Assembly: GCA_001002325.1 (NCBI GenBank)
Contig: LCNZ01000007.1
Span: 91,410-155,409 of the forward strand
DNA from: Candidatus Amesbacteria bacterium GW2011_GWB1_47_19
GTDB taxonomy: Bacteria > Patescibacteriota > Microgenomatia > CAZETR01 > Amesbacteraceae
DNA: 64,000 bases
Direction: 5' to 3'
The position numbers and the translations under genes were made by a program. Of this stretch, positions 5,821 through 42,477 are shown in pieces (position 1 is the first letter of the stretch; each line of letters begins with the position of its first letter). The notes below the pieces were generated by a model, which had not been told where the DNA came from, did not search any database, and saw only the letters and a list, made by a program, of their open reading frames with translations.

Positions 5821-5878
5821 ATAACTCACCCCTAACCCCTCTCTTAATCTAAGAGAGGGGATAAGAAGAGGGGGAGGA
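5821..5878 (+). repeat. Nested palindromic repeat, copy A (intergenic).
   Basis: ctcacccctaacccctctcttaatctaagagagggg... is an inverted repeat. It matches copies at 30121, 41092, 42012 and 42287. Confidence 0.7.
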
Positions 5879-5882
5879 AGAA

Positions 5883-5908
5883 AGCCCGCCATACGGTGGG
5901 TTTTTTGG
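5883..5908 (+). terminator. Rho-independent terminator after 16S.
   Basis: Stem cccgcc/ggtggg with an atac loop, followed by tttttt. Confidence 0.55.
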
Positions 5909-5914
5909 TGGCTA

Positions 5915-6763
5915 TTAGAGTTTTTCGGAGGTGGATTCGGAGAGTTTTTGTTCGGCCAGTATGCGGCGGTTCATTTTGCGGGCAGCCTGAAAAATTTCAG
6001 CGGGAATTTTTTGCCGGGAGCAATAGTCTATCCAGGTGACCAGATCTTTAGGGAAGCATTTACCTTTGACGCCGCGATGTCCCCGGTGCCAGATTACCCG
6101 ATAGTGGCGGCCCATGGGAACGCCCACCCACTTTGAAGCCATGGCGGCCTTGATAACCCGTTCGTAGTCCAGTTTTTCTTTGCGGCAAACTTCCCAATAA
6201 TGATTAGATTCCAGAACTTCCAGGACTCCGTGCAGATTATTAATGTACTTTAGAAGTTCGGCTTCTTTGGCCGGAAAAATCATATCGTAAGGGCTGACGG
6301 GGAGGGAATTGAGGACTTTTATAGCCATGGATAATGATTGTCCGGTATAGCCGATAAACTGGCGGTCGGGATTGTTGAAGTCGCTATCGGCGGTGGCTTC
6401 GGACAAGAATTCCGGGTTGAACAGCAGTTTCAGACCGGGGAATTTTTTTTGCAGCCGGTCGGTGGTGCCGACAGTGACAGTGCTTTTGAGAACGACAGTT
6501 TTGCCAATCGGAATCAGGGAGAGGACTGAAATTACTGCCGAGTCATCGTAGGTTTTTTTGATCCAGAGATAGGGGGTGGGGACGCATACGAAAATCAGGT
6601 CAGCATTTAGGGCCTGTTTTTTTTGCGTTTGTTCACGGAGATCGTAGCCCCAGACCGGGTAACCCGATTTTTTGAAGTAACGGTAGACAGTACCGCCGAC
6701 CATGCCCAAATGGCCGATCACTCCTACAGATTTAAAATGTTTAAGAGAAATAATAATGCCCAT
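5915..6763 (-). CDS. UDP-glucose/GDP-mannose dehydrogenase family protein (short form).
   Basis: N-terminal GxGxxG (VGVIGHLGMVGG) and catalytic-Cys motif GKCFPKD. At 282 aa it is shorter than a typical Ugd. Confidence 0.5.
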   Translation of the reverse strand: MGIIISLKHFKSVGVIGHLGMVGGTVYRYFKKSGYPVWGYDLREQTQKKQALNADLIFVCVPTPYLWIKKTYDDSAVISVLSLIPIGKTVVLKSTVTVGTTDRLQKKFPGLKLLFNPEFLSEATADSDFNNPDRQFIGYTGQSLSMAIKVLNSLPVSPYDMIFPAKEAELLKYINNLHGVLEVLESNHYWEVCRKEKLDYERVIKAAMASKWVGVPMGRHYRVIWHRGHRGVKGKCFPKDLVTWIDYCSRQKIPAEIFQAARKMNRRILAEQKLSESTSEKL

Positions 6764-6785
6764 TATACTACGATTATTTTATGTG

Positions 6786-6814
6786 TTGACAATTTAATGC
6801 GGGGGGTGTAATCT
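6786..6814 (+). promoter_or_regulatory. Candidate sigma70-type promoter (TTGACA, 17-nt spacer, TAATCT).
   Basis: ttgacaatttaatgcggggggtgtaatct. A 47-codon ORF follows at about 6832-6975. Confidence 0.3.
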
Positions 6815-6989
6815 TCTAAGATTTACTGATTATGGAAAATAAGAAAACGAGATCTATTTTCGATAAGCCGGATAGGGAGACGGTTACTCCTGAATTGCTT
6901 AAGAGGGCAGGGCTTTTTGTGAATCAGGATTTTTTGAATGTGTGGAGAGAAGGAGCGGGGGACAAAAGTAATAGGGAGAGAAAATAAGA

Positions 6990-7214
6990 TTAGCGGAGGT
7001 AGGGATTTCTTTTGGAAAGCTGGGCCTGGGTGGTTTCGACGATATCCGCGATCCAGGAGCCGATGAGGGGTAACCCCCCGGCGGATTTAAGGAGTATTAC
7101 CAGGGTTGTTGAGACGGCGACGAAACCGAGGGTAACTCCAAATGCCCAACCGATACCCCGCAAAAATCCGTCTCTGATTAAATGTGCCACATGGGGGGAA
7201 GGAACAGAGTCCAT
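6990..7214 (-). CDS. Small membrane protein, hypothetical.
   Basis: 74 aa with two hydrophobic segments. It overlaps a plus-strand 69-aa ORF that appears less protein-like. Confidence 0.3.
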   Translation of the reverse strand: MDSVPSPHVAHLIRDGFLRGIGWAFGVTLGFVAVSTTLVILLKSAGGLPLIGSWIADIVETTQAQLSKRNPYLR

Positions 7215-7250
7215 AGTTTAATATTAGGCCAATGGAGTAAAATTTAGCAA

Positions 7251-7460
7251 ATGGATGCGAAACAAAAAACAAAAATAACCGAACTGGAAGCCAAACTGGC
7301 AAAATACATGCCGATATATTTGGAAAAAAAGAGGCAATTCAGAGGGATAAAACACGAAGATTCGTTATCGGAACTGCGCTATACACAATATATGGTCTAC
7401 AAAGATTTGGTGGAGGGATTGGAGAGGGAAATTGTGAGGTTAAAAATCGGAAAATATTGA
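7251..7460 (+). CDS. Hypothetical small protein.
   Basis: 69-aa ORF, charged and helical. It overlaps the next ORF by 4 bp. Confidence 0.3.
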   Translation: MDAKQKTKITELEAKLAKYMPIYLEKKRQFRGIKHEDSLSELRYTQYMVYKDLVEGLEREIVRLKIGKY

Positions 7461-7672: not shown

Positions 7673-7675
7673 TTG

Positions 7676-7747: not shown

Positions 7748-7824
7748 GGTGTGGTTGAAATTATACTACGGAGGCGGGAATATTGGTGGTAAAATACCGG
7801 AGTTTGAGTATAATTATTGCGGAT

Positions 7825-8825: not shown

Positions 8826-9554
8826 ATGAAGGTCAAAGAAACCCCGGTGGTGAAATTTAGTAATGTCTGCCGGTATTACGGAAGTACCGGCAATGGGGGA
8901 GAGGTGGTTAAGGCCTTGTGCGGGGTGTCTTTTGAAATTACCAAAGGGGAATTTTTAGCAGTTACCGGACCATCGGGGTCAGGGAAATCAACACTTTTAC
9001 ATTTAATGGGCCTTCTTGACAGGCCGAGTGAAGGAGAAATAGATATTGACGGGGTGCCGGTATCGAAAATGTCTGATACCAGTTTAGCCAAATTGCGCAA
9101 CCAGAAAATCGGATTTATTTTTCAACAGTTTAATTTGTTGCCTAAAACGTCTTCGTTGAAGCAGGTGGAATTACCACTGGTGTATGCGGGGGTGCCTGCC
9201 GGGAAAAGGCGGGAGATGGCGAAAAAAGAGTTGGAAGCGGTGGGGCTGGCGGATAAAATGAATAACCGGCCGTCACAACTTTCAGGCGGCCAGCAGCAGC
9301 GGGTGGCGATAGCCCGGGCGATGGTCACGGGACCGGCCTTGCTTCTGGCAGATGAACCTACAGGAAATCTGGACAGTAAATCCGGTGCGTCAATTCTGGA
9401 ATTATTTGAGCAGTTGCACGAAGGTGGGGTCACGGTAATAATTGTCACTCATGACCGGGATGTAGCGGCACATGCTCCCCGGCAATTGGTGATCCGGGAC
9501 GGGGAGCTGGTGGAGGACCAGCCTACGCGGAGGCTACGGCCGGCAAGTAAATAA
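8826..9554 (+). CDS. ABC transporter ATP-binding protein (MacB/LolD-like).
   Basis: Walker [10 protein letters not shown], signature [14 protein letters not shown] and Walker B LLLADEPT. Confidence 0.85.
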
Positions 9555-9556: not shown

Positions 9557-10756
9557 ATGGAAATAAAAGAATTATTAAGTACAGCTTTTGTGGCGATCAG
9601 GACGAACAAAACCCGGTCGGTGCTGACTACTTTGGGGATTATCATCGGGGTGGGTTCGGTGATATTGTTGGTGGCGATAGGCAGCGGACTTCAAAGTTTT
9701 GTGACAAAAGAGTTTGAAGCTTTGGGATCAAATGTATTGTTTATCTCTCCGGGTAGAGTAAGTTTTTCAGGCGGACCCCCGCAAAATGTGGAAGCCAAAT
9801 TTGATTTTGAAGATGTGCGGAAGATAGGTGAACTGGGGGCACCGATAGTCAAATCGAGCGGAATGATATCCAAGGGAGTGACTATAAAATACCGGTCCGA
9901 GTCTTTTTACGGAAACTTAGCGGGGGTGGAAGAAGACTACCAGGAATTCGGCAATGTGGAAATTGATAAGGGACGTTTTTTTACCAAGAATGCGGTAGAA
10001 AGGGGACAATTTGTAGGAGTGATAGGGCATAAGGTTTACACGGAATTGTTCGGTGAAGGCAGAGAGGCTGTGGGGAAAGAAGTGGACATCTCGGGAAGAC
10101 AAATAAAAGTTATCGGTGTCCTGAAGGAAAAAGGGGGAGGAATCGGGGGGAGCAGTAATGAAAATACTTTTGCCATAATTCCGGTTACCACGGCTTCGAA
10201 ATTGACGGGAATTAATAAACCGGCGGCGGTGATGGTCCGAACAGCTACGGCGGAAGACACAACCATCGCTACCCGGAAAGTAAAGGAATATTTTTACAGG
10301 AAAGATTTAACTGATGATGATTTTACAATCCTGGAACCCAAAGAGCTGTTGAGCACAATCAATTCGTTTTTGGGTGTGGTGACGGGAGCTTTATCGGGGA
10401 TTGCCGCAATATCGCTGGTGGTGGGTGGCATCGGGATTGCCAATATTATGCTGGTTTCCGTGACTGAAAGAACCCGGGAAATCGGTCTGAGGAAAGCTCT
10501 GGGAGCGACAAGAAGGGATATTTTGTTGCAATTTTTGATTGAGGCTGTAGTATTGTCTGTCGTAGGAGGGGGAATTGGGGTGGCCGGAGGCTGGGGACTG
10601 TCGGTATTGATGTCGCGATTCATTGAGACAGCGGTGACACCCTGGTCGGTGGGATTGGCATTCGGAATTTCTGCGGGAGTGGGGGTGGTTTCAGGGTTGG
10701 CTCCGGCAATCCGTGCCGCCAGGCTGGACCCCATTGCCGCCCTGAGGTATGAATAA
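9557..10756 (+). CDS. ABC transporter permease, FtsX/MacB family.
   Basis: 399 aa with an N-terminal TM segment, a periplasmic domain and a C-terminal FtsX-like four-helix bundle. It completes a three-gene operon with the two genes upstream. Confidence 0.75.
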   Translation: MEIKELLSTAFVAIRTNKTRSVLTTLGIIIGVGSVILLVAIGSGLQSFVTKEFEALGSNVLFISPGRVSFSGGPPQNVEAKFDFEDVRKIGELGAPIVKSSGMISKGVTIKYRSESFYGNLAGVEEDYQEFGNVEIDKGRFFTKNAVERGQFVGVIGHKVYTELFGEGREAVGKEVDISGRQIKVIGVLKEKGGGIGGSSNENTFAIIPVTTASKLTGINKPAAVMVRTATAEDTTIATRKVKEYFYRKDLTDDDFTILEPKELLSTINSFLGVVTGALSGIAAISLVVGGIGIANIMLVSVTERTREIGLRKALGATRRDILLQFLIEAVVLSVVGGGIGVAGGWGLSVLMSRFIETAVTPWSVGLAFGISAGVGVVSGLAPAIRAARLDPIAALRYE

Positions 10757-11310: not shown

Positions 11311-11892
11311 ACTATTGAAAGTTGACCCCGGTTTCCCTTCGCGGGAGGCCGAGGTTAGCTTTCAAAAAGTAAGGCTTGTACCTTGAAAAGTGAAGAGAAT
11401 AAAGTTAGTAGAGCCGTATTTTTTACTTCCGTAAGGCAGACAACGAATGCCTAGGATACTGAAGCCGAAGAAGGACGTACGTGGCCACGAAAGTCGTCGG
11501 GGAGCTGCCAAGAAGCTTTGATCCGGCGGTGTCCGAATGGGGAAACCCCCTCTTTATGAGGACCCCGCCTATGGCGGGGGGGGCACGCCCTGAACTGAAA
11601 CATCTAAGTAAGGGCAGGAAAAGAAATCAACGTTCGCGCAAGCGAGAGAGATTCCGTAAGTAAGCGGTGAGCGAAAGCGGAACAGCCTAAACCCCGCCGC
11701 AAGGCGAGGGTGTTGCGGGAAGGCCGAGTGACCGGCAAGGGTAGTCGAACTGTCTGGAAAGGCAGGCTATAAAACGTGACAGCCGTGTAGGCGAAACCCA
11801 AGCCGGCGTGAAGCCGAATTCCCAAGTACCATGAGGCACATACCTTGTGGGAATCCGGGGTGACCACACTCCAAGGCTAAATACTTCAGTGT

Positions 11893-11933
<41 letters not shown>

Positions 11934-13382
11934 GGGTGAGAAACCTAGTGAAATAGAACCTGAAATTGTCTGCTGTCAAGCAGACGGAGTCCCGCCTTTG
12001 GCGGGATGACGTCGTGCCTATTGAAGAATGATCCGGCGAGTTTTCGTTACATGCATGTCTAATCCGTCTAAAGCGGAGGAGGCGTAGTGAAAGCGAGGGT
12101 TAACAGCCCGTATATTGCATGTGATGGAAGACCCGAAACCTGGTGAGCTAACCATGAGCAGGGTGAACCCCGTCGAAAGACGGGGGGAGGCCCGCACTCG
12201 TCAGAGTTACAAATCTGTGAGATGACTTGTGGTTAGGGGTAATATGCCAATCGAACCAGGAGATAGCTGGCTCTCCCCGAAATATATATAGGTATAGCCT
12301 TAAGACTAACTTTCAAGAGGTAGAGCACTGGATGGGCAGGGCATCTTTAGGTGTCCTATTCAATCAAACTCCGAATTCTTGAAAGCTACATCTTAGGAGT
12401 CAGAACGACCCGGCTAAGCGGGCCGCTCTAAAGGGAAACAACCCAGACTGTCGTCTAAGGCCTCTAAATGAATGCTCAGTGTTGAACGAAGTCAAATTCC
12501 TCAGACAGCCAGGAGGTTGGCTCAGAAGCAGCCATCCTTTAAAGAAAGCGTAACAGCTCACTGGTCGACCTTGGAATTTGGCGCGGAAAATGAACCGAGG
12601 CTTAAGCATTCTGCCGAAGACACAGATTTTTTTGACGTTCGCGTCAAAAAAGTGGTAGGGGAGCGTTGAAGGAGCAGTGAAGTCCCTCTGTAAAGATCGG
12701 GATGGAGCGACTTCAAGTGAGAATGCCGGAATGAGTAGCGTAAGCCCGATGAGAATTCGGGCCGCCGAAACCCCAAGGTTTTCCCAGCCATGTTGTTCAG
12801 CTGGGAGTGAGTCGGCACCTAAGGTGAGGCCTAAGTTGGCGTAACCGATGGACGAGCCGTTAACATTCGGCTACATGATAAGTATCGTTATAAAATCAGG
12901 GATGGACAAAATGAGAATATCCGAACGCACGTAGTGAATGTGGCGTTTAAGCAGCAAGACAGTTAGGCTTGGAAAAACCGGTCTGACGTTTAATTGAGCT
13001 GTGATGAGAAGTCTGGCGAGAAATCAACGGGCAACTCGGACGGTTTTTGTTTTCCAGAAAAGATTCGTGGTGAGATATTTATTATGCCGTACCGCAAACC
13101 GACACTGGTGGGGTGGTCGAGTAGACCAAGGCGATCGGGAGAAGGTAGTTCAAGGAACTCGGCAAAAAATCTGGACGTAATCTAGAGAGATGTCCTTCCC
13201 GCCTATGGCGGGACGCAGCGAAAGATTATTCCCCGACTGTTTAACTAAAACACAGGTCTGTGCAAACTTGAAAGAGAAAGTATACAGGCTGAGGCCTGCC
13301 CAGTGCTCGTAAGTTAAGTGGATGGCTGAGATTACATCAAGGCTTGAAATGAAGCCCGAGTGAACGGCAGCAGTAACTATGA

Positions 13383-14074
13383 GCCGAAAGGCCGTTGTAG
13401 TTAAAAAAGTCGACTATATGCTGGAATATCTGGAGTATCTAGCACTAGTTTATTTCGGGTATATTTCGGAGTAGACTGAAAATGTGTCTAGTGCAGACAA
13501 TCAGCAGGAAAGGTTAAAGACAGGACATTTTTTGGCAGGATTTGTTGAAGGCGAAGGAAGTTTTAATATTTCCATACGCCGTAAAGCAGACTATAAAGTA
13601 AGTTGGCAGGTGGTGTTGAGCTTTAATGTATCTCAACGCGATCCATCACTTTTATATTTGCTAAAACAAACTCTTGATTGTGGGATTATTAAAAAACGTT
13701 TTGATGGTGTTTATTCGTTTGATGTGACAACACCTGCGGACGCGATTTATAAAGTAATTCCATTTTTCCAAGAATTTCCGCTTCGTTCAAAGGATAAAAT
13801 TCGTAACTTTAACTTATTTGTTAAAGTGGCGAATTTAATGAAGAACGGAGAACACAAAACCCAAGAAGGACTGTTTAATATTCTGAGCATCAGAGAGAAA
13901 ATAAACTTGGGTAAGGGGAGGACTAGAAAATATTCGATTTTCGATGTATTTCCCAATCTGTCTTTAGAATCCCCAGAGACTATACGTCGACTTCGGCAAT
14001 CGCCGAAATGATATAGTCCGGACTCCATGGCGACATGGAGAGACGTAACCAATCGTCCTTTGTAACAAATCGAA
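13383..14074 (+). mobile_element. Group I intron 1 in 23S (E. coli position ~1917) with a homing-endonuclease gene.
   Basis: The exon breaks after ..gtaactatga and resumes at ..ctgttctatggtagcgaagttcc. Confidence 0.7.
13484..14011 (+). CDS. LAGLIDADG homing endonuclease (single-motif type).
   Basis: LAGFVEGEGSF motif. The ORF is inside the intron. Confidence 0.75.
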   Translation: MSSADNQQERLKTGHFLAGFVEGEGSFNISIRRKADYKVSWQVVLSFNVSQRDPSLLYLLKQTLDCGIIKKRFDGVYSFDVTTPADAIYKVIPFFQEFPLRSKDKIRNFNLFVKVANLMKNGEHKTQEGLFNILSIREKINLGKGRTRKYSIFDVFPNLSLESPETIRRLRQSPK

Positions 14075-14109
14075 CTGTTCTATGGTAGCGAAGTTCCTTG
14101 TCGGGTAAG

Positions 14110-14784
14110 CGGCGGAAGCAAGCCCGACGTAAAAAACTGACTCATATCGGTGGAGCCTCTTGACCTTCGGGTTTTATAAGGTCAGGATGGTAATACCGAG
14201 GGAAGTCGTCCGGTTGATAACTGGATTGACCCCGTAACGACTTAGGATGCACGTACATCCTGGAGGCATTATGCCTAACACGTCAGTATCACGGAATGTT
14301 TGCTGGTATCTATCGGGTTACGCCGATGGAGAAGGCAGCTTTTGTGTAAGTTTTTCTCCCAGAAATAAGTTAAGGTCCAAACTTGAAGTTAGACCGAGTT
14401 TTTCGGTATCGCAAAACGCTGATAGATCCGAAGTCCTTTCTCTGTTTCAACAGATATTGGGATGCGGAACTATCAGGCCAGATAGAAGCGATAAGACTTT
14501 AAAGTTTGAAATCCGAAGTTTATCTGAACTAGTTGAAAAAGTGATACCTTTTTTTGAAAAATATCACTTGATGTCTTCTAAAAGAAAAGATTTTTCTGTA
14601 TTTTCCCAAATTTGTCATTTGATGAATGAAGGAAATAAAAGTAAATCGGAATTAGAACATATCATTAGACTGGCGATGAAGATGAATGTTTCTGGAAAAA
14701 GAAAATATAACACACATAAACTTATAAGTATTTTGTGATAAAGGTATAGTCTATCCCATTGGTGACAATGGATTTAAAGATGAA
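14110..14784 (+). mobile_element. Group I intron 2 in 23S (E. coli position ~1931). It lies only ~35 nt of exon downstream of intron 1.
   Basis: The exon breaks after ..cttgtcgggtaag and resumes at gttccgacccgcacgaa. Confidence 0.7.
14247..14738 (+). CDS. LAGLIDADG homing endonuclease (single-motif type).
   Basis: LSGYADGEGSF motif. The ORF is inside the intron. Confidence 0.75.
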   Translation: MHVHPGGIMPNTSVSRNVCWYLSGYADGEGSFCVSFSPRNKLRSKLEVRPSFSVSQNADRSEVLSLFQQILGCGTIRPDRSDKTLKFEIRSLSELVEKVIPFFEKYHLMSSKRKDFSVFSQICHLMNEGNKSKSELEHIIRLAMKMNVSGKRKYNTHKLISIL

Positions 14785-15310
14785 GTTCCGACCCGCACGA
14801 AAGGCTTAACGAGGGAATAACTGTCTTGAACTATCACCCGGCGAATTTGAAATGGCTGTGAAGATGCGGCCTAACTCTACTAGGACAAAAAGACCCTATG
14901 GAGCTTTACTGTACCCAGGCCCTGTTTTGGATTTTGAGATAGTTTAGAGTAGGAGGGAGTTCTCGGACAAAAGTGAAACACCTCCCGTTTTGGAATTTCA
15001 AAACTTACCCAGACCAGCTGGAAACGCTGGTGGGGACGAGGTCTGGATGGCAGTTTTACTGGGGAGGTATCCTGCTAAAAGGTAACGCAGGAGTACCAAG
15101 GTGCACTAGGCTCGGATGGAAATCGAGCGAGTCGTATAACGGCATAAGTGCGCTTGACTGCGAGAGCGACGGTTCGAGCAGGGACGAAAGTCGGTCGTAA
15201 TGATCCTCGTTAGCCTTGTGGGAGGCTACGAGCTTAACGGATAAAAGCTACCCTAGGGATAACAGGCTGATCGCCGCCAAGAGTCCATATCGACGCGGCG
15301 GTTTGGCACC

Positions 15311-16135
15311 TTAACCAAAAAGGTCATCGGGGTGCATGGCTAGCAATAGCTTTAGCAAGTCTGTTTTAATTGGTTATTTCTGACTCATATCGGGGAACTC
15401 CTTGAATTCGTGTTTGTTTCGGTTTAGTCTAGATTAACATGAACGAGGACAATCCCGAGGGAAGTCTTACGGAAATGGAAAAGCACATTGTTGAGGGTTG
15501 CCTATTGGGTGACGCAACGATGAGAATAAAAACTAATTCTTTGATTGAAATCAACCACTCTTTCAAACAGAAGGCCTTGGTTGATCATTTGTACTTTGTT
15601 TTGAAAAGATTTGTGATTACAAAACCAAAAATGCGGAGAGGTAATGGAACAAGGTTTGCTTATCGGTTTACTACCCGGTCTTTATCTTTGTTCAACGATT
15701 TTTTCTTTCGCTTTTATGCTGGTGGGAAAAAGAAAATTCCTCATGATCTAGATTTAACTCCTGTTCATCTGGCGTATTGGCTTATGGATGATGGGAGCAG
15801 AACTTATAATACCGTGTATTTAAATACTCAACAATTTATAAAAAGTGATCAAGAGGTATTATTAAGCAAACTCCGTGAATTACACATTGCGGCTTCGTTA
15901 AACAAAGACAAGACATATCAAAGAATAAGGATTGCCGTATCAAGCATTCCGAGATTGAAAAATGTGGTGATACCATATATTCTTCCGGAAATGCGATACA
16001 AAATTCCGTAATGACCCTGTATCGACTTGTGGTTTCAAGACCACGGACTCGCCTTTCGGCGGGTAAGACGTCAGCTCCCGATTTGCTTTATTGGGATGAA
16101 GGTATAGTCAGCGCTTCGAGTAATCGGAGTATCTA
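15311..16135 (+). mobile_element. Group I intron 3 in 23S (E. coli position ~2449).
   Basis: The exon breaks after ..ggtttggcacc and resumes at ..gcgatgtcggctcaccctatcctgg. Confidence 0.7.
15439..16011 (+). CDS. LAGLIDADG homing endonuclease (double-motif type).
   Basis: Two motifs, CLLGDATM and WLMDDGS. The ORF is inside the intron. Confidence 0.65.
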   Translation: MNEDNPEGSLTEMEKHIVEGCLLGDATMRIKTNSLIEINHSFKQKALVDHLYFVLKRFVITKPKMRRGNGTRFAYRFTTRSLSLFNDFFFRFYAGGKKKIPHDLDLTPVHLAYWLMDDGSRTYNTVYLNTQQFIKSDQEVLLSKLRELHIAASLNKDKTYQRIRIAVSSIPRLKNVVIPYILPEMRYKIP

Positions 16136-16205
16136 TGCGATGTCGGCTCACCCTATCCTGGAGGGGCAGTACCTTCCAAGGGTCCGTCTGTTCGCCGGTT
16201 AAAAG

Positions 16206-16242
<37 letters not shown>

Positions 16243-17051
16243 GACCCGCCTTAACATTTGGCGGGTGACACTGAGCTGTCCATCCTTCAAAACGTTTTGA
16301 ATGTATAAGAGGAGTCTGTTAATTGAAGGTCCCAAAATCAGTTTGGGAATAAATCTGACTAAATGCTGGAAAACCTTGTTAAGTAGTATCTACTAGTATA
16401 TGATTTGTATACTAGTAACAAAGATACCTAATTCGGTGGATACGAAGCAAGGCAATCAGCAGGAAAGGCTAGTTAAAGAAATCAGCGACGATTATTTGAG
16501 AGGTTTTGTAGAAGGCGAGGGCTGTTTCTATATAGGAATAGTTAAGTCTTCTGAAACACTTACTCATTGGCAAGTGGTCTATTTTTTCAAAGTTTCCCAA
16601 AATCCATCCGGAAGGGTGGTGTTGGAGAAGCTTAAGGAAAAACTGGGCTGCGGTTATATTAAAAGAAATAGTCTAACTGACAAAACCGATAAAAGTTTGG
16701 CATTTGTTGTGAGAGACTTGCCAAGTTTGTCCGAGAAAGTAATTCCGTTTTTTAAGGATATGCTGTTTACACAAAAGAAGGACGACTTTCAAAAGTTTTC
16801 TCAAGTTGTGGTAATAGTATCTTTGGGGAAACATCTAAAAAAGACCGGAATGAAAGAAATTCTTGACGTCGCTTATACGATGAATACAGGTAAACGCAAG
16901 TATTCAAAGGAAGAGATACTGAAGAATTTTGATGACTAGAATCCTCAACGACTATACGTCAGATCCCGCTTGGCGGGAAAGATATAGTCTGAACCCTATA
17001 GTGATATAGGGAGCGAATACTATTCGCCGTTTTTTAACGTAACAATAATGT
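16243..17051 (+). mobile_element. Group I intron 4 in 23S (E. coli position ~2593, the classical I-CreI/I-CeuI homing region).
   Basis: The exon breaks after ..cgtgagacagtt and resumes at cggtctctatccagtagag..cagtacgagaggacc. Confidence 0.7.
16400..16939 (+). CDS. LAGLIDADG homing endonuclease (single-motif type).
   Basis: LRGFVEGEGCF motif. The ORF is inside the intron. Confidence 0.75.
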   Translation: MICILVTKIPNSVDTKQGNQQERLVKEISDDYLRGFVEGEGCFYIGIVKSSETLTHWQVVYFFKVSQNPSGRVVLEKLKEKLGCGYIKRNSLTDKTDKSLAFVVRDLPSLSEKVIPFFKDMLFTQKKDDFQKFSQVVVIVSLGKHLKKTGMKEILDVAYTMNTGKRKYSKEEILKNFDD

Positions 17052-28982: not shown

Positions 28983-29731
28983 AAAAAATAGTGATGATCA
29001 AATTGGGAGGTGGACTAATCGCGCCGAAGGAGTGGGCTTGGGAGACTCCGGACGGGGGAGTAATCGGCCGGCTGGTAAAAGAAATTAAATCGGGCAGCGG
29101 TGATAGGGGGATAGTTTTGGTGAGCGGGAGCGGGAACTTCGGCCACCAGGCGGTGAAAAAATACGGGATAGATACGGAAGACGGGGTGGAGAAGGTCAGG
29201 AAAAGTGCCGGTAAAATCGGAGCGATTGTCGCCGGTGATGCGGCTGCTGCCGGTTTGAAAATTGAACTGATTGTGCCCCATGAAATATGGCCAAACGGCC
29301 GCACGGAATCGGTCTCAGAATCCTTAAAAGCCGGGAATACGGTGGTACTGTATGGGGATGTGATGGGGATTGGACGGGGGGAGTGGAAAGTGTGGTCCGG
29401 GGAGAAGTTAATTTCGGAAACGGTTAAACATATGAATGAATCGGGGCGCGAGATCGGGATGATAATTCAGGTGAGCCGGGAGGAGGGGGTATGGGATAAA
29501 AACGGGAAAATAATTCCGGAAATAAATCAGAATAACTGGAGAAAAATAAGGAGTGAGGTGGGGGGAGCGACAGGGACGGATGTGACCGGAGGGATGCTGC
29601 ATAAAGTGGAGGAAAGTTTGGAAATTACCCGGAAATTCGGTATAAAAACATGGATTATCAGCGGGAGAGTGAAAGGGAGACTGGAAAAATTGTTGGCGGG
29701 GGAGAAAGTTTTTGGGACAGTGGTGGGTTAG
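28970..29731 (+). CDS. Isopentenyl phosphate kinase (amino-acid kinase fold).
   Basis: IKLGGGLI..VSGSGNFGHQ motifs typical of the IPK/FomA family. It is adjacent to the decarboxylase. Confidence 0.6.
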   Translation: MVDMKKIVMIKLGGGLIAPKEWAWETPDGGVIGRLVKEIKSGSGDRGIVLVSGSGNFGHQAVKKYGIDTEDGVEKVRKSAGKIGAIVAGDAAAAGLKIELIVPHEIWPNGRTESVSESLKAGNTVVLYGDVMGIGRGEWKVWSGEKLISETVKHMNESGREIGMIIQVSREEGVWDKNGKIIPEINQNNWRKIRSEVGGATGTDVTGGMLHKVEESLEITRKFGIKTWIISGRVKGRLEKLLAGEKVFGTVVG

Positions 29732-29997
29732 AAACCCGGTTCTCGGTTTTTTAATGCCAAGATAGCAGCTTCAGTGGGTGAAAGCGGCTGATTATTACCC
29801 AGCTTTGCTTCGATTAGTTCGATGGCTCTTCGTTCTCTACGAGGAGGTCGTCCAAGATTTGCCAAGCGAGTGATGATGGCGTAGTGTATTGGGATGGATG
29901 TATCGGCAATAATTGCTGCCAGATTGAAGAGACTCGGATTTAGAGTTGCTTCTTGGCGAAGAGCTTGAAGGGCTTGTTCTCTGAGAGTTGTAGCCAT
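29728..29997 (-). CDS. Hypothetical protein.
   Basis: 89-aa ORF with no recognisable motif. Confidence 0.25.
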   Translation of the reverse strand: MATTLREQALQALRQEATLNPSLFNLAAIIADTSIPIHYAIITRLANLGRPPRRERRAIELIEAKLGNNQPLSPTEAAILALKNREPGF

Positions 29998-30120: not shown

Positions 30121-30175
30121 ATAACTCACCCCTAGCCCCTCCCTTAACTTAAGGGAGGGGAATAAAAGAGGAGAG
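30121..30175 (+). repeat. Nested palindromic repeat, copy B (intergenic).
   Basis: ctcacccctagcccctcccttaacttaagggagggg... Confidence 0.7.
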
Positions 30176-30191
30176 TTGATAATAAATAAAT

Positions 30192-30440
30192 ATGAATTTA
30201 TATCAATTGGAGGAAAAGTTAGCCCGGTTGCGGGAGAGGTTGCGCGCACTGGAAACGGTTGAGGCGGAAAAGATCCGCCGGAAGCGGATATTGGCTGATA
30301 TGGGTGATGACTATCGGGAGAATGAAGGGGCAAAACTGGTAATGGAGGACCACAATCTATTTCACCAACGGGTTTTGAGCCTGAAGAAAGAAATTTACGA
30401 AGTCAAAAAGCAGATTATGAAATTGAAGCATTTTGGGTAA
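30192..30440 (+). CDS. GreA/GreB N-terminal coiled-coil-domain-like small protein.
   Basis: 82 aa. The MGDDYRENEGAKL block resembles the GreA GDLSENAEY finger. There is no C-terminal FKBP-like domain. Confidence 0.35.
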   Translation: MNLYQLEEKLARLRERLRALETVEAEKIRRKRILADMGDDYRENEGAKLVMEDHNLFHQRVLSLKKEIYEVKKQIMKLKHFG

Positions 30441-31668
30441 GGGACTCTACGATGGTTTCGAAGTGGAAGGAGCGGGAGGCCTTGATAAGAATGCAGAGAT
30501 GAGAGTTGCGAGAGGAGAAATCTATGACACGTTGGGATAGGGTTTCGACGGTGTCGAAATACTGCCCGGTGCCGGCGGCGGCAATGGTGTATTTGGTAGC
30601 CGGACCGGTACACAATAAATTCTCTATTTTCAATTTACGAATTTTCAGACCGACTTCTTCATGAGCAGATTGTTCGTATTGACCCAGCTCGTTCATTTGT
30701 CCGAAAACAAAAACCGGAGTATTGCCTGTTAAGCGGGAAATTTCGATTAGTGTGTCCAATGAAGCAGCGACTGCCAGAGGATTGGCATTGTGGGTGTCGT
30801 CTAAAAGCAGCGGTCCGTTTTTGACTGGGATGAGATAGAGGCGTCGGGAGGGGACCGGGGAATGCTCCAATCCATAGACTATATTTTGCGGATGAACATT
30901 AAACAGAATGGCAATTGTGGCGGCAGCAGCAGCAGGATAGGCAAAGTGGCGTCCCAGAAACGGGAGATGAATGGTAAATGATTTTTGATTGATGACTAGT
31001 TCGACTTTGGTTTTGAGGTCGGAGGAGATGACAGAAGATTTGATTTGGGTGAAGCAATTCGGTGAAGCACCAAATTTGAAGACTGAGCCAGAGACCGGGA
31101 GGTTAATATTCGGATCGTCGGCATTGATGACTGCCGGGGCAGACGGTACTAATGCATCAATGAGCTTAGCTTTTTCCGAGGCGACGACAGAAACATCTTT
31201 CAGATACTGGGTGTGGGTGCGGTTGGCATTGAGATAGACAGCCCCGTCAGGCCGGGCTAGCCAAGTATAAAAGTCCATATCACCGGGATACTCAATGCTC
31301 ATTTCCAGGATAAGATAGCGAGTGCGCATGGAACAGCGGAGAATTGTGGTGGGCAGGTTGTAGGTGGAGGTAATATTGTCCAGGGTGGAGACGGTTGGTC
31401 CTTCCAGGGAAAAGACGGAAGTGAGCATATTTTTGGTGATGGTTTTACCGGCAGAGCCGGTAACGGCGATGACCTTGAGTCCGGAAATACGCTGTAGAAA
31501 CAGCAGGTAGTATTTGGCGATACGGCGCTTCAACGGGTGAATGAACCAGTGGAGAAGGGGATTGATTTGCCGGTCCGGAAAAAGTTCCTGGTGGGGAAGA
31601 GGTCCGGTCCAAAGCCGAAGCAAATAATTCGTATCAGTCATAGACTTTACCGCGGTAATCGACATCAT
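30415..31668 (-). CDS. murF: UDP-N-acetylmuramoyl-tripeptide--D-alanyl-D-alanine ligase.
   Basis: Mur ligase P-loop VIAVTGSAGKTITK and the MurF signature DDTHNANP. Confidence 0.75.
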   Translation of the reverse strand: MMSITAVKSMTDTNYLLRLWTGPLPHQELFPDRQINPLLHWFIHPLKRRIAKYYLLFLQRISGLKVIAVTGSAGKTITKNMLTSVFSLEGPTVSTLDNITSTYNLPTTILRCSMRTRYLILEMSIEYPGDMDFYTWLARPDGAVYLNANRTHTQYLKDVSVVASEKAKLIDALVPSAPAVINADDPNINLPVSGSVFKFGASPNCFTQIKSSVISSDLKTKVELVINQKSFTIHLPFLGRHFAYPAAAAATIAILFNVHPQNIVYGLEHSPVPSRRLYLIPVKNGPLLLDDTHNANPLAVAASLDTLIEISRLTGNTPVFVFGQMNELGQYEQSAHEEVGLKIRKLKIENLLCTGPATKYTIAAAGTGQYFDTVETLSQRVIDFSSRNSHLCILIKASRSFHFETIVESLTQNASIS

Positions 31669-31882
31669 AAATATATAAAGTTTGGTTTGGGGGATCGAAG
31701 GAATAGATTATTCTTAGTGGCCAGGCATAGTAACTTCGGTAGCCTAACAAAACACCACCCAGCTGCTTACCGAGGAGTGGGTTGTCTTTTAGTATACCGA
31801 TTTTTTTTCTGGCCTTTTTCTTTTCCACCGGACCTATTTTTTGGAGGTGTTTGACTGCCGTCGGGGAGAAAATAATCTCCAT
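31634..31882 (-). CDS. Type II toxin, RelE/ParE family.
   Basis: 82 aa with a C-terminal YRIIY..IYDVDYRGKVY pattern. It lies downstream of a Phd/YefM-like gene. Confidence 0.6.
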   Translation of the reverse strand: MEIIFSPTAVKHLQKIGPVEKKKARKKIGILKDNPLLGKQLGGVLLGYRSYYAWPLRIIYSFDPPNQTLYIYDVDYRGKVYD

Positions 31883-31892
31883 GAATTAGAGT

Positions 31893-32171
31893 TTACCATC
31901 CGATAAGTTTGTCGGCTTTAGCAGCGGGGATACCTTTGCCTGATTTAATCTCTTTGATTCCCTTTTTGATAGATGTAACAAATTCTTTATCAGACATTAT
32001 TTTCATAGTCTCTAACCACCCTTCGTATTCTTCAAACGGCATAATGACAACTTTGGTTTTACCGCGTAGAGTAATGGTGAATTGGCGGAGTTTATCCGAA
32101 GCTTCATCCAAAAGCTGATAGAAATTAGCTCTAGCTTCGTGGGCTTGGAGAGTGGAACTTAATTGGGTCAC
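31893..32171 (-). CDS. Type II antitoxin, Phd/YefM family.
   Basis: 92-aa acidic protein with a Phd-like N-terminus (ARANFYQLLDEA). It is adjacent to the RelE-like gene. Confidence 0.55.
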   Translation of the reverse strand: MTQLSSTLQAHEARANFYQLLDEASDKLRQFTITLRGKTKVVIMPFEEYEGWLETMKIMSDKEFVTSIKKGIKEIKSGKGIPAAKADKLIGW

Positions 32172-34383: not shown

Positions 34384-34665
34384 ATGTATACAGTTACATT
34401 AACTCGGCAGGGACAGATTACCATACCATCGGGGATGAGGAAGAGTATGGACATTAAGGGGGGTGATAAATTGAACTTTATTGTTCGGGGAAAGGGAATT
34501 GAGGTGTCCAAAGCGACCGGTTGGGAGTCCTTAAGGGGCGTGCTGGTGGAATTTAAAGGAAATTATCCGACTAAGAGACAACTTGCCAGGGCTCATATAT
34601 CCGGTTTGAATCTAAGAACCCGAAAGGATGCAAAAAATACTAGTCGATACCAACGTTTTGCTTAG
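34384..34665 (+). CDS. AbrB/MazE/SpoVT-family antitoxin (VapB-like).
   Basis: Swapped-hairpin motif GQITIPSGMRKSMDIKGGDKL. It lies upstream of a PIN gene. Confidence 0.6.
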   Translation: MYTVTLTRQGQITIPSGMRKSMDIKGGDKLNFIVRGKGIEVSKATGWESLRGVLVEFKGNYPTKRQLARAHISGLNLRTRKDAKNTSRYQRFA

Positions 34666-34993
34666 GTATCTGGTAGACGGTGATACGTTACTAGAAAAAA
34701 TAGCTGATAAGGGTGTTGTGTGGCTGGTTGAGGAAGTCGTGATAGAGCTGGTGTTTGCGTTACAGGAGCACTATGGTCAATCCAGAGAGAAAATATTTGG
34801 ATGGGTAGTGGATTTACTTATGAAGCCAAATTGCGAAAGTAACAGAACTTTATTATTTAATACCTTGGCCGTTTACAGAGATCAAACTAACTTGAGTATT
34901 GTTGATGCATATTTATTTGCCTTGTCAGAAGAAAATAAAGTTGAATTGGTAACTTACGACAAGAAGCTTAAACGGAAATTGATTAAACAATAA
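34628..34993 (+). CDS. PIN-domain toxin (VapC-like).
   Basis: N-terminal ILVDTNVLL acidic motif, 121 aa. It overlaps the antitoxin gene. Confidence 0.6.
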   Translation: MQKILVDTNVLLRYLVDGDTLLEKIADKGVVWLVEEVVIELVFALQEHYGQSREKIFGWVVDLLMKPNCESNRTLLFNTLAVYRDQTNLSIVDAYLFALSEENKVELVTYDKKLKRKLIKQ

Positions 34994-39773: not shown

Positions 39774-39794
39774 GAACTTTTATACTATATAAGA

Positions 39795-41078
39795 TCAGCC
39801 AGCAATAGTAGATCCAGTAATAAACTTTATATATTGTTCTGCTTCGTCGCGGTAGTCTTTGAAAAGGGTGAAACTGGGAGCGGCGGGGGAGAGGAGGCAA
39901 ATTTCCCCTGATGCAGTATGATCCAGTGCCAGTTTGACTGCATCCTGCATACTTTCAGTGTAATAGTACCCGATGTTCGGGTTTTGTTTAACAGAGATAA
40001 TTTCACTCCAAATCCGGGGTCCGGTGGCGGGGAAAGCAATAAGTGTCTTTATACCTGAAGATAGTATCTTTTTTGCTAATTCGGAGTAATTTTGTTTGCG
40101 ATCATGGCCGCCGGCGATAAGAGTGGTGACTTTGGGGTGTAATGCGTCTATAGCAGCGATTGTCGCTTCAGGAATGGTCGCCAGAGTGTCGGAGTAAAAC
40201 TCAATTCCTTTTTTTGTACCTACCGGTTGCAGGCGGGTATCCAGGGGGGTGAATTCTTTGACCGCGGCGTAGAGTTTATCCTTCGGGAGATTAAGAATTT
40301 CAGCGACTTTCAGGGCGGGAATGATATTGAGCCGATTGTGTTTGCCAAGGAGTTTGGTTTTTGTAGCCGGACCGAAGTCATTAAAGGAAAATATAATTTT
40401 TTTGGCAAGGGTGGGAATATCTGTTTGAGTGATCAGATAATCTTTGGCAGATTGGAAATTGGTAATATTGTATTTGGCATTTTTATATTCCTCGAAGCCT
40501 GTGTGGTAGTCCAAATGATCCGAATAAATGGCCTGCAAAACTGCGATATGTGGGCTGGTTTGCAGATCCATCAGCTGGTAAGAAGACAGCTCTAACACGA
40601 CCCAGGTGTCTGGGGTGATTTCCGGCAGGAAATCCAGCGCTGGACGACCGATATTGCCTACCAATACTACCGGTAAACTCGATTTTTTGATAACTTCATA
40701 TATCAGACTGGTAGTAGTAGATTTACCCTTTGTGCCGGTAATACCGATAGTATTTTTGCTGGGGCAGACCTCAAAGAATATTTCCGTATGGGAAGTGAAA
40801 ACTGCACCCCTTTTTTTAGCGGCTACTAATTCAGGTTTATGGGGAGAGATACCGGGACTTTTAATTACCAATTTCCAATTTTCAATTTTCAAATAATTTT
40901 CACCAAACTGTATATGTATCAGGGGGTCGTCGGGGAGCCAGTCGGGGGTTTTTTGATCGGCCAGACCGATAATCAGTTCAGGAAATTTCGCACGCAGATA
41001 TTTGTAAGTGGATTGGCCTTCCCGGGCAAAACCCAATATGAGAACTTTATCGGATTGGGAAATTTTATCGATAATCAT
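39795..41078 (-). CDS. murD: UDP-N-acetylmuramoylalanine--D-glutamate ligase.
   Basis: Mur ligase P-loop IGITGTKGKSTTTS. It contains an in-frame caatttt-family insertion (LKIENWKL) near the N-terminus. Confidence 0.7.
   Translation of the reverse strand: MIIDKISQSDKVLILGFAREGQSTYKYLRAKFPELIIGLADQKTPDWLPDDPLIHIQFGENYLKIENWKLVIKSPGISPHKPELVAAKKRGAVFTSHTEIFFEVCPSKNTIGITGTKGKSTTTSLIYEVIKKSSLPVVLVGNIGRPALDFLPEITPDTWVVLELSSYQLMDLQTSPHIAVLQAIYSDHLDYHTGFEEYKNAKYNITNFQSAKDYLITQTDIPTLAKKIIFSFNDFGPATKTKLLGKHNRLNIIPALKVAEILNLPKDKLYAAVKEFTPLDTRLQPVGTKKGIEFYSDTLATIPEATIAAIDALHPKVTTLIAGGHDRKQNYSELAKKILSSGIKTLIAFPATGPRIWSEIISVKQNPNIGYYYTESMQDAVKLALDHTASGEICLLSPAAPSFTLFKDYRDEAEQYIKFITGSTIAG
40868..40893. repeat. 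caatttt-family repeat inside murD (coding on the minus strand as LKIENWKL).
   Basis: ccaatttccaattttcaattttcaaa. Confidence 0.7.
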
Positions 41079-41091
41079 ATTAAGTTTTTAA

Positions 41092-41147
41092 AACCTCACC
41101 TCTAACCCCTCTCCTAATTCAGGAGAGGGGAACCGAAGGGGTGAGGT
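41092..41147 (+). repeat. Nested palindromic repeat, copy C. It overlaps the 3' end of the PP-loop gene, and the TGA stop lies in its loop.
   Basis: cctcacctctaacccctctcctaattcaggagaggggaaccgaaggggtgagg, with inner and outer inverted repeats. Confidence 0.7.
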
Positions 41148-42477
41148 ATTGGGATTTTAATATATCTTCGAATTCCTTTGGCATGTTGGGATTATCCTGC
41201 CAGGAGGAGAGGATCCGGTCTAGTCCTTTTCCGGTAAAAGCCGCATTGGCTTCGGCGCGGGTGAGGACGCATTCGAAAGGTTTGACGGGGTTTTTGCCCA
41301 GCAGGTCATCCATAATACTTATATTTTCGGGCAGGTCAGGGGGATATGAGCCCATTATTTCCGACACTTTATCTTTACCTATAAAACAAGCCAGCATCAT
41401 GGCGGTGGAAACGCATTTGGGACAGTGTTGACACCATAAGCCTTTGGGATGGCTTTTGGGATCCAGTTTGAAGTTGGTGTTGCAGCTGGAAAAGATTTTG
41501 AAATATTGTGGATAGCGGGAAAAGATTTTGGTAATTTGGATTTCGTAGAGAGGACGGAGGAAGGAAAAATATGAGATATGAGAATTGAGAAATAAGAGAT
41601 ATTGGTTGAAATCAGTTTCAAATTCCAGTGACTTGGAATATTGATGGTTGATGGTGTGGTCCAAATATTCGGTGTTACCTTCATCACTGCTGCGCTCGTT
41701 ACTGAAGGTGATATATTTGCATTCGGTAATTTGGGCTGCCAATAATGCTTCAAATGAATGTGTAGCAGTGATAGGGACATGACCATTCAAATAGCCTAGT
41801 GAATTAAGTTCATGGAGATGGGGATCGATGGTGCTGGTCAGGATAAAAGGCGACAGGCTTGCGGTCTTGCAGACGTTTAACATCAGAGGGACAGGGTCGA
41901 CCAGGAAGGGAATAACATTGTAGTGGGGTTTGAGGAGTTCGAGGGTGACGATGGAGTCTTTGCCCCCACCGACTGGAACCAGAACTTTGTTATTCCCCCA
42001 TATTTTCTTAAATACCTCACCCTCTTCTCCCTCTCCTAATCTAGGAGAGGGATGGGGAGAGGTTTTAAAAGCGCTTAATGCCAGAAAATCCTTTTCGGTA
42101 AAATCAATTTGATTCTTGTAAAAATATTCCCCCATGCCTTTTAAAAACAATTTTTCCCAAAAAGAAATTTGAGAGGCAGACAGGTTTCCGGCCCGGATTT
42201 CGATGACGGGGGAGCAGGTGGATTTCCAGTAGGAGGGCATTAAAGACAGACCCATATGGAAGATGAGATTATCCAGGGTTGGTAGTACCTCACCCCTTTG
42301 ATTCCCCTCTCCTAATTTAGGAGAGGGGTTAGGGGAGAGGTTAATTTTATGGGTGAAGTGGTGATCAGGTGGGATGGAATAGAAAAATTTAATTTCCAAA
42401 TCCCCGTTTACTATTTCGTACTCAAACTTCTCGTAAATAAATTTGGGGTATTTATGGCGAAGTTCCTGATACTTCAT
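41119..42477 (-). CDS. PP-loop (SGGxDS-type) ATP pyrophosphatase family protein of unknown specificity, embedded between murD and murC.
   Basis: VLVPVGGGKDS PP-loop at about residue 165 and a downstream CQHCPKC. Two in-frame copies of the palindromic repeat encode SP(H/N)PSP(R/K)LGEG..GEV. Confidence 0.5.
   Translation of the reverse strand: MKYQELRHKYPKFIYEKFEYEIVNGDLEIKFFYSIPPDHHFTHKINLSPNPSPKLGEGNQRGEVLPTLDNLIFHMGLSLMPSYWKSTCSPVIEIRAGNLSASQISFWEKLFLKGMGEYFYKNQIDFTEKDFLALSAFKTSPHPSPRLGEGEEGEVFKKIWGNNKVLVPVGGGKDSIVTLELLKPHYNVIPFLVDPVPLMLNVCKTASLSPFILTSTIDPHLHELNSLGYLNGHVPITATHSFEALLAAQITECKYITFSNERSSDEGNTEYLDHTINHQYSKSLEFETDFNQYLLFLNSHISYFSFLRPLYEIQITKIFSRYPQYFKIFSSCNTNFKLDPKSHPKGLWCQHCPKCVSTAMMLACFIGKDKVSEIMGSYPPDLPENISIMDDLLGKNPVKPFECVLTRAEANAAFTGKGLDRILSSWQDNPNMPKEFEDILKSQYLTPSVPLS
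42012..42065 (+). repeat. Nested palindromic repeat, copy D (inside the PP-loop CDS, in frame).
   Basis: cctcaccctcttctccctctcctaatctaggagagggatggggagagg. Confidence 0.7.
42287..42342 (+). repeat. Nested palindromic repeat, copy E (inside the PP-loop CDS, in frame).
   Basis: cctcacccctttgattcccctctcctaatttaggagaggggttaggggagagg. Confidence 0.7.

Follow-up and report, generated by a model that had tools for sequence, protein, structure and literature searches.

Intrastrand triplex motifs of the BoxC type have been familiar for three decades, the earlier work on the BoxC/PIT/TM motifs reportedly being that of Bachellier et al. and of Hoyne and Maher. Here we describe a repeat of 53–57 nt that occurs five times (copies A to E) in a 64,000-nucleotide stretch of Candidatus Amesbacteria bacterium GW2011_GWB1_47_19 (contig LCNZ01000007.1, positions 91,410 to 155,409 of the forward strand), which as a whole is called the window below and in whose coordinates positions are given; judged by its structure, the repeat belongs to the same class. 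In E. coli, BoxC, the PIT element and TM_ECO are one element, CCCTCNCCC N3-6 GGGNGAGGG N3 GGGNGAGGG (Holder et al. 2015, PMC4666352); its fold is an intrastrand triplex of class II, of the purine-motif type, in which the arm, a mirror of the purine stem, pairs in the reverse-Hoogsteen manner (PMC4666352). Triplex folding of the isolated strand has been demonstrated for the E. coli sequence, local instability is reported around the motifs and BoxC shows no transposon association there; PIT elements have neither promoter nor terminator activity in E. coli, and purine-motif triplexes do not arise in RNA (PMC4666352). A sequence-only reading of the Amesbacteria stretch had been aware of no comparable element in genomes of this kind; a precedent for the element does exist, the class being known from E. 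coli BoxC/PIT/TM and from cyanobacteria (PMC4666352).

A triplex motif was accepted where a pyrimidine stem was followed by the complementary purine stem and by a 3' G-rich arm mirroring the purine stem, with at most one mismatch and with G·G-C, A·A-T and T·A-T as permitted triads. The window element follows this plan, its unit being the pyrimidine stem CCCCTCTCC, a short A/T-rich loop, the purine stem GGAGAGGGG, 1–9 nt and the arm GGGG[T/A]GAGG. Copy A (5824–5879, minus strand), which reads CCCCTCTCT / AGAGAGGGG / TTA / GGGGTGAGT, is intergenic and lies about 135 nt 3' of the 16S end; copy B (30124–30178, minus strand), with CTA as its second loop, is intergenic too and is placed between 29728–29997 (minus strand) and an open reading frame (ORF) starting at 30192 (plus strand). 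The remaining copies carry the motif on both strands: copy C (41092–41148) at the murL–murD junction, and copies D (42014–42066) and E (42287–42343) in frame in murL, as TSPHPSPRLGEGEEGEV (aa 139–155) and LSPNPSPKLGEGNQRGEV (aa 47–64), respectively. On the minus strand, nine of nine triads are formed in copies A, D and E and eight of nine in B and C; on the plus strand the score is 9/9 in C, D and E but 7/9 in A and B, where the arm is degenerate, so that three copies satisfy the rule there. All five window copies have one orientation, a number too small for inference.

The rule-based scan of the window returned these five sites only, with no match in 20 shuffles, and a profile built from the five copies recovered just the same sites in 64 kb, with E-values of 4e-17 to 5e-15. 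The core pattern CCCCTCTCCTAATNNAGGAGAGGGG, at up to three mismatches, matched A, C, D and E, against none expected from 100 window shuffles. The claim of a dispersed family of five copies therefore held, with coordinates within 1–3 nt of those first given and no copy expected by chance. The remark that copy A adjoins a terminator was likewise correct: a terminator-like hairpin followed by a T run, AAAGCCCGCCATACGGTGGGTTTTTTGG (5884–5907, plus strand, read from the sequence), lies directly 3' of it, between the 16S unit and the convergent gene 5915–6763 (minus strand).

The hairpin folds that had been suggested for prediction came out stable on both strands. For each strand of the copies, taken as single-stranded DNA, ViennaRNA, which covers hairpins only and not the third strand, gave folding energies of -13.5 to -19.9 kcal/mol (z -3.7 to -6.0). 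In all five copies the stems are perfect, of 9–11 bp, and the loops are of 5–7 nt, with compensatory inner-stem changes in copies A, B and D; the stem variant of copy B, CCCCTCCCT/AGGGAGGGG, is one of these, and copy D combines a private T-A stem variant with the matching A in its mirrored arm. The plus strand of copy E, CCCCTCTCC-TAATTTA-GGAGAGGGG-TTA-GGGGAGAGG, is a perfect mirror repeat, and its minus strand reads CCCCTCTCC-TAAATTA-GGAGAGGGG-AATCAAA-GGGGTGAGG. Copies start with (T)ACCTC and finish with GAGGT(A). Copies A, B, D and E have one stop-free frame per strand, while in copy C the plus strand has two and the minus strand one; copies D and E are translated in the single stop-free frame, and the frame used in copy C stops in the loop.

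The element had originally been described as a nested palindrome with inner and outer inverted repeats. The inner repeat stands, but the outer arms do not behave primarily as a second Watson–Crick stem, for they follow the mirror rule and in copies D and E leave an A/A mismatch (CAC vs GAG); a T or an A opposite A-T fits a triplex and breaks a duplex, which accounts for this mismatch. We therefore read the nested palindrome as most probably two triplex motifs, one per strand, sharing one hairpin, where, in single-stranded DNA, the hairpin would accommodate the arm in its major groove through G·G-C, A·A-T or T·A-T triads.

The same triplex scan recovered the published E. coli TM_ECO pair, which served as a positive control. 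A strict TM_ECO regular expression, in contrast, matched twice in E. coli (comparison locus L127) and once in Agitococcus (L019) but in none of the window copies; because the E. coli pattern proper is unmatched, TM_ECO sensu stricto is excluded and the window element appears to be a distinct variant of the class. The likeness to BoxC/PIT/TM lies in the order of the parts (C-rich stem of 9 nt, short loop, complementary G-rich stem, short second loop and G-rich mirror arm, likewise of 9 nt), in the tolerance of T or A opposite A in the arm, and in the TTA second loop that copies A, C and E have in common with E. coli type A. Both elements are also dispersed, multi-copy and highly conserved without a linked transposase, and both occur as units in inverted orientation. 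They differ in stem register and sequence, CCCCTCTCC(T) here and CCCTCNCCC in E. coli, in the first loop, which is here A/T-rich and 5–7 nt long, and in the sharing of one hairpin by the motifs of both strands. Furthermore, the E. coli copies are always intergenic, whereas copies D and E are situated within murL and C runs across its 3' end, and the host belongs to the Patescibacteria, which are absent from the survey report of Holder et al. (2015). Taken together, the structural definition supports assigning all five copies to a dispersed class of intrastrand triplex motifs that are rich in G/C.

Comparison loci were collected by scanning for the exact inner-hairpin pattern, with one genome per species, and gave at least 119 loci carrying the hairpin, in many phyla and mostly in a one-armed form; hosts and counts for these loci, here and below, are among the matches listed. 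The hosts in the Patescibacteria are Amesbacteria, Microgenomates, Nomura-, Uhr-, Zambryski-, Wirth- and Saccharibacteria and Parcubacteria, and those in the Bacteroidota are Spirosoma, other Cytophagales and others; the element also occurs in Ignavibacteria, Melioribacter, Melainabacteria, Moduliflexus, Chloroflexota, Myxococcota, Oscillospiraceae, Streptococcus danieliae and Gammaproteobacteria. In nearly all cases the hairpin is accompanied by ACCTCACCCC 5' of it or GGGGTGAGGT 3' of it, usually just one of the two, and two-armed copies account for 17/54 in the Patescibacteria loci compared with 6/141 elsewhere.

Variant stems are paired with matching mirrored arms, as in AAGAGAGGG/GGGTGAGTT, AGGAGGGGG/GGGGGTGGT, AAGAGGGGG/GGGGGTGTT, AGGGGGGAG/GAGGGGGGT and GGGAGAGAG/GAGTGAGGG. 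When the fit of each arm to its own stem was compared with its fit to the consensus stem, the own stem was better in 32 cases, tied in 13 and worse in four (sign test, 2e-6), and in 2000 permutations of stems and arms the observed fit was never reached. A mirror relation is impossible through Watson–Crick pairing, so that a third strand is the simplest reading of it. With the stems and arms invariant or covarying and the loops variable, the nucleic-acid fold is what is conserved, with the peptide a by-product.

Several of the matches depart from the simple unit. Composite forms in which an extra G/C hairpin (tgcccgcagggca or tggcccgaagggtcg) is lodged in the second loop, which joins the purine stem to the mirror arm, were seen in Microgenomates, Tidjanibacter and Melioribacter (L034 1599, L040 3138, L051 5835 and L074 7173), and the murD copy of L001 (8615–8693) has a 24-nt insert within loop 1. 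In Spirosoma and other Cytophagales, units are paired about 25–50 nt apart with their arms outward (L068 5987–6080, L041 7742–7830, L118, L122 and L125), forming MITE-like composites (MITE, miniature inverted-repeat transposable element) of about 100 nt, many per genome. One contig, L208 (IMGVR_UViG_3300007351_000082), was the sole viral contig with the core pattern in the viral collection scanned; its three one-armed copies (8877–8912, 10340–10375 and 11758–11793) are all intergenic and all on the gene strand, and two of them end in GGGTGAGGT, 5–6 nt ahead of the ATG of the next gene.

The gene that hosts copies D and E and that copy C overlaps at its 3' end (41119–42477, minus strand) had been called a PP-loop ATPase, a name that is compatible with our assignment but imprecise. 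The protein is, on present evidence, best regarded as a MurL homologue: it matches NF041275 (E 8e-70, 236 bits, under the equivalog cut-off of 700), its homologues carry PF26298/PF26299, MurL_N and MurL_epimerase_C, and it lies within a large mur cluster with the conserved gene order murC–murL–murD. Translation of the ORF gives ...KINLSPNPSPKLGEGNQRGEVLPT... and ...KTSPHPSPRLGEGEEGEVFKK..., exactly as first noted, which bears out that copies D and E are in frame. Copy D sits in the linker ahead of the GGGKDS PP-loop domain and copy E in a loop of the N-terminal domain. Copy C encodes the last nine residues, YLTPSVPLS, and the ORF ends ...QYLTPSVPLS-TGA, the TGA (41119–41121, minus strand) being inside loop 1 of the copy, as had also been recognized; copy C has thus replaced the C-terminus of MurL and provides its stop codon. 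In the AlphaFold model of MurL (mean pLDDT, the predicted local distance difference test score, 90.7), confidence is low only at aa 51–70, 141–160 and 445–452, and these three stretches, the element-encoded ones, are predicted to be disordered.

Among 54 aligned MurL homologues, the insert at site E was found in this species only. The element at the site-D linker is present in the window and in homologues P0004, P0005, P0007, P0019, P0015 (partly) and P0042, and the corresponding linker peptide of P0002, P0010 and P0012, SPxxRRGxGGEV, may, judged by back-translation, come from the same element read in a different frame over its 3' half. The inserts are missing from most orthologues, the nearest (P0003 and P0006) included, and distant MurL proteins have none; the absence of the inserts from orthologues, which the sequence-only reading had proposed to check, is thus patchy on the MurL tree. 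In sister taxa the same linker holds other repeat-like peptides, RMTMNDxRMTMND, TPFNPPLNLRGGNS, GKLFENxKLKIENS and LPAGRQA-like ones. At the DNA level, relatives carry the element at site D (L001, L003, L004 and L005) and at the 3' end of murL (L001 and L006), where it again provides the TGA. Clustering at 90% groups the protein solely with full-length members of 452 aa and with fragments, and the next relative is 65% identical.

Third-codon positions within copy D are identical at 15/15, 11/12 and 9/9 sites to those of relatives whose MurL proteins are 59–65% identical, compared with about 49% for the rest of murL (p 3e-5 to 2e-3), and the differences fall in the loops; since the synonymous sites are frozen, the constraint acts on the DNA. 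The site-D copies of four genomes, the MurL proteins of which are about 60–65% identical, share the private T-A stem variant, accompanied by the matching A in the mirrored arm in three of the four (the window, L001 and L004), and are probably orthologous and old, while the site-D copy in the P0019 clade looks independent. The MurL linker would accordingly seem to be an insertion hot spot with turnover, in keeping with the local instability reported around the E. coli motifs (PMC4666352).

It had been argued at the outset that SPxPSPxLGEG segments in orthologues from unrelated lineages would mark them as native protein features. The segment does recur at the same linker in related Microgenomates MurL proteins, namely the P0004, P0005, P0007, P0019, P0015 and P0042 homologues above, but it does so as a DNA repeat. 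That the segments are native MurL linkers, their DNA similarity a by-product, is a reading to which this recurrence lends its one argument and to which we give almost no credence: identical DNA units lie in intergenic DNA, in unrelated genes and in other phyla, the inserts are missing from the closest homologues as well as from distant MurL proteins, synonymous sites are frozen while loop codons vary, and the segments are predicted to be disordered. The frozen synonymous sites, the other repeats in sister taxa and the lack of any in distant MurL proteins all mark the segments as insertions, and the relatives' DNA, the homologue alignment and the frozen sites effectively refute a native origin.

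Linker repeat peptides were also seen in homologues P0023, P0030, P0032, P0034, P0036, P0039, P0044, P0052, P0056 and P0113, and further in P0016, P0018, P0022 and P0033; TPFNPPLNLRGGNS back-translates to a CCCCC-TTTAAATTTAA-GGGGG palindrome, and other linker stretches of sister MurL proteins read LPAGRQA or GAQGEPPEGKVAEH. MurL-like proteins numbered 6965 at E <= 1e-10, the top hits with a source name all being from Patescibacteria, and a 2021 review limits MurL to some Gamma- and Alphaproteobacteria and rare actinobacteria. The murC–murL–murD cluster (39795–43826) suggests a MurD2/MurL route to D-Glu in this Amesbacteria genome.

Copies inside genes are a feature of the Patescibacteria at large. 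By a stop-to-stop heuristic for distinguishing genic from intergenic copies, 28/48 copies in Patescibacteria loci lie in long open frames compared with 16/104 in other phyla (p 2e-7). For ten of the in-frame copies, comparison with Pfam showed them to be situated inside domains or between them in genuine genes, namely those for TsaD, MiaA, MnmA, topoisomerase I, a glycosyltransferase, a 5'-3' exonuclease, a class I aminoacyl-tRNA synthetase, an Elp3-like radical SAM protein, a Wzy_C protein and a PrgI-family protein; Mur ligase genes of L001 and L004 also contain copies. The coding strand may be either one relative to the motif (5 vs 6), which argues against a role tied to the direction of transcription. 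A search of open-access papers found none on palindromic or triplex repeats within Patescibacteria genes.

The closest parallel to this behaviour is that of the Rickettsia palindromic elements (RPEs) (Ogata et al. 2000), which, like some MITEs, insert in frame in genes (reviewed in PMC10969869). Both RPEs and the present element are palindromic repeats found in frame in unrelated housekeeping genes, translated, at fold-compatible sites and in small gene-dense genomes. However, RPEs are about 100–150 bp long, fall into ten families, are limited to Rickettsia and have no mirrored third arm, whereas the element measures 53–57 nt; no sequence resemblance is evident, the two being set apart by description and not by alignment to an RPE consensus. 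The label 'REP/RPE-like' (REP, repetitive extragenic palindrome) therefore stands for the RPE-like behaviour but not for membership of either family, given the length, the host, the mirror arm and the lack of a GTAG/CGTC head.

Of the possible origins, a MITE- or RPE-like transposon would explain the element as a loop of 5–7 nt enclosed by two terminal inverted repeats (TACCTCACCCCnnCCCCTCTCC), each of about 22 nt, and moved in trans by a transposase, perhaps with a TA duplication, the in-frame copies being survivors. The two-armed copies are indeed long imperfect palindromes, often with a TACCTC start and a GAGGTA end, relatives are multi-copy (for example, six in 12.9 kb of L001), the inverted unit pairs of Spirosoma flank a spacer like terminal repeats, and in-frame insertion has precedents in RPEs and some MITEs (PMC10969869). 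MITEs such as ERIC, Correia/NEMIS and the cyanobacterial ones are similarly non-autonomous, have inverted-repeat ends, are sometimes in frame and can bring stop codons or ribosome-binding sites. Yet MITEs are usually longer than 100 bp, as RPEs are, with target-site duplications and a parent insertion sequence, neither of which was found here; most copies across phyla are one-armed and so without a second terminal repeat, the arm–stem relation is a mirror, which no transposase end requires, and E. coli BoxC is likewise free of transposon association (PMC4666352). We consider such a transposon unlikely.

Mobilization as a REP by the RAYT-like (RAYT, REP-associated tyrosine transposase) Y1 transposase encoded at 54696–55391, the only transposase in the window, is less likely still, indeed very improbable. 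Y1 enzymes act on single-stranded hairpins (IS200/IS605, RAYT), and this one would recognize the hairpin of the element; the 231-aa Y1_Tnp protein scores 35.9 bits in Pfam against a cut-off of 23, has a HUH motif (NHFH) and conserved tyrosines, and finds its best NCBIfam match in the model for REP-associated tyrosine transposases, albeit with a score of 37, below the cut-off of 80. Its relatives occur in Microgenomates Gr01-1014_16 and in Ignavibacteria, both carriers of the element. Nevertheless, no copy flanks the gene in the window, and 80 metagenome loci (370 kb) around its relatives held no triplex-motif match and one weak profile match; the link was rejected because the element is near neither the window gene nor these relatives. 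REPs and bacterial interspersed mosaic elements resemble the element as short, G/C-rich, imperfect palindromes in many dispersed copies, with a RAYT-like gene in the window, but REPs are extragenic and headed by GTAG or CGTC, whereas the element has no such head and lies away from the gene. The RAYT-like or IS200-like gene (plus strand) is preceded by a perfect palindrome, CCTATTGCGCAATAGG (54655–54670), its protein family has about 5000 relatives, many in Patescibacteria, and the neighbouring ORF 55487–56062 (minus strand) encodes, of a Xer or phage integrase, no more than the N-terminal SAM-like domain.

As a further explanation, the element may be a functional RNA or punctuate operons; its hairpin would then act on the transcript or the ribosome by stabilization, processing or pausing, with the G-rich arm as the Shine–Dalgarno sequence of the next gene. 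In favour are the positions of copy A, within the 16S trailer, and of copy C, at the murL–murD junction, where in three genomes the copy provides the murL stop with its arm 15, 8 and 11 nt before the murD ATG. In the window, the minus-strand arm of copy C, GAGGTGAGG, is the one 15 nt upstream of that ATG, a long spacing for a Shine–Dalgarno site. The GAGGTGA that copy C may offer to murD is complementary to the 16S tail at 5673–5685. A gene start lies within 60 nt of the arm side in 62/192 cases compared with 30/208 for the armless side (p 3e-5), and at 4–12 nt in 16/192 compared with 7/208 (p 0.05); two of the L208 copies end just ahead of an ATG, as mentioned above, and copy D coincides exactly with a domain boundary, a place at which pausing of translation could aid folding. 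On the other hand, no start lies within 60 nt of 68% of the arms; D, E and the majority of Patescibacteria copies are far inside genes, in either orientation relative to transcription; a U run is absent and no Rfam family matches any copy; and the E. coli findings on PIT activity and on RNA also speak against it (PMC4666352). With only 8% of arms 4–12 nt before the start of a long ORF, a Shine–Dalgarno role was rejected as a general explanation, and we regard the wider RNA reading as improbable.

We conclude that the element is probably a selfish or neutral structural DNA repeat of the triplex class, with occasional exaptation, rather than a dedicated regulator. Copies would arise through copying or insertion that probably depends on single strands, and would persist where they do little harm, which in gene-dense Patescibacteria would include disordered loops at the protein surface, linkers between domains and gene 3' ends; survivors would be those with a single stop-free frame per strand and lengths that are a multiple of three, and in-frame survivors would be translated as Ser/Pro-rich and then Gly/Glu-rich filler. 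A stronger claim can be made, namely that mirror covariation across Patescibacteria, Bacteroidota, Ignavibacteriota, Melainabacteria, Chloroflexota, Proteobacteria and others proves selection on a three-stranded fold in living bacteria, something that laboratory work on BoxC could not demonstrate, and that the Patescibacteria copies in essential genes, as exemplified by the old, frozen site-D copy at the domain boundary of MurL, are functional structural DNA under purifying selection at the DNA level and not passengers, but this we consider doubtful.

Several observations weigh against our conclusion. In E. coli, in vivo dimethyl sulfate (DMS) footprinting gave no support for a stable triplex, and duplex DNA showed no triplex signal for the motif (PMC4666352). 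Given this, and the lack of promoter or terminator activity, it is the covariation that argues for a cellular relevance of the triplex, and there the copies share ancestry and the events counted are phylogenetically non-independent. The same non-independence, together with exact-hairpin retrieval and the stop-to-stop heuristic, sets sampling limits on the genic counts. Mobility of the element is something that we infer: the flanks of the two-armed copies gave TA-like ends only and no target-site duplication, no copying enzyme could be tied to the element and no transposase link was found in the window. No significant preference of the motif for either strand, as defined by the local GC skew, was apparent (14 vs 22, p 0.24). 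Finally, the old, DNA-constrained site-D copies exceed what would be expected of inert junk, which hints at function, and a subset of the copies may be functional, given that arm sides face gene starts more often.

The window holds other features of note. An insertion of about 720 nt, containing a LAGLIDADG_3 ORF (5019–5609) and a sub-threshold group I intron match (5498–5633, E 6e-8), splits the 16S gene (3558–5689) after about 4919, close to its true 3' end (GGATCACCTCCTT at 5673–5685); the 16S 3' tail, AACAAGGTA...GGATCACCTCCTTTCT, lies at 5644–5689, and the Rfam alignment stops at 4950. In the region 11420–16224 the 23S rRNA match spans 4 kb for a 2.9-kb model, and an extra fragment lies at 16138–16224 with a LAGLIDADG_1 ORF (16400–16939) just 3' of it, so that introns are probable in the 23S gene as well. 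A distance of about 5.7 kb, in which protein genes and tRNAs are found, separates the 16S gene from the 23S gene.

A second repeat family consists of three or four tandem AATTTTC units on the plus strand, in five tracts that all lie inside ORFs: 188–215 (SpoU methylase), 30618–30638 (Mur ligase), 40870–40890 (murD), 46940–46967 (Mur ligase) and 62096–62123 (glycosyltransferase). These tracts read NFQFSIFNFQ in plus-strand genes and LKIENxKL in minus-strand genes, and in other lineages the same peptide (GKLFENxKLKIENS) occupies the MurL linker. The whole window, 1–64000, has a strongly positive GC skew (0.15–0.38), though genes lie on both strands, and a comparable strand disparity appears to be reported for a Microgenomates genome (PMC7143001). 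Within the peptidoglycan gene cluster are three type II toxin–antitoxin pairs, ParE/Phd (31634–32171), MazE/PIN (34384–34993) and RelB/YafQ (44918–45468).

What is new in the element, compared with the motifs described before, is its two-armed form, its Patescibacteria host, its frequent in-frame genic copies and the mirror covariation across phyla. The unit of hairpin plus mirror arm has a far broader range than the proteobacterial and cyanobacterial cases described, and stem–arm covariation of the triplex type is the kind of evidence by which RNA structures were established. As for the annotation of these genomes, stretches resembling SPxPSPxLGEGxxGEV should be taken as repeat-derived. In the Patescibacteria, the copies alter housekeeping enzymes (MurL, TsaD, MnmA and topoisomerase I), donate stop codons and possibly ribosome-binding sites, and so provide a second, independent case of the phenomenon known from the RPEs of Rickettsia.

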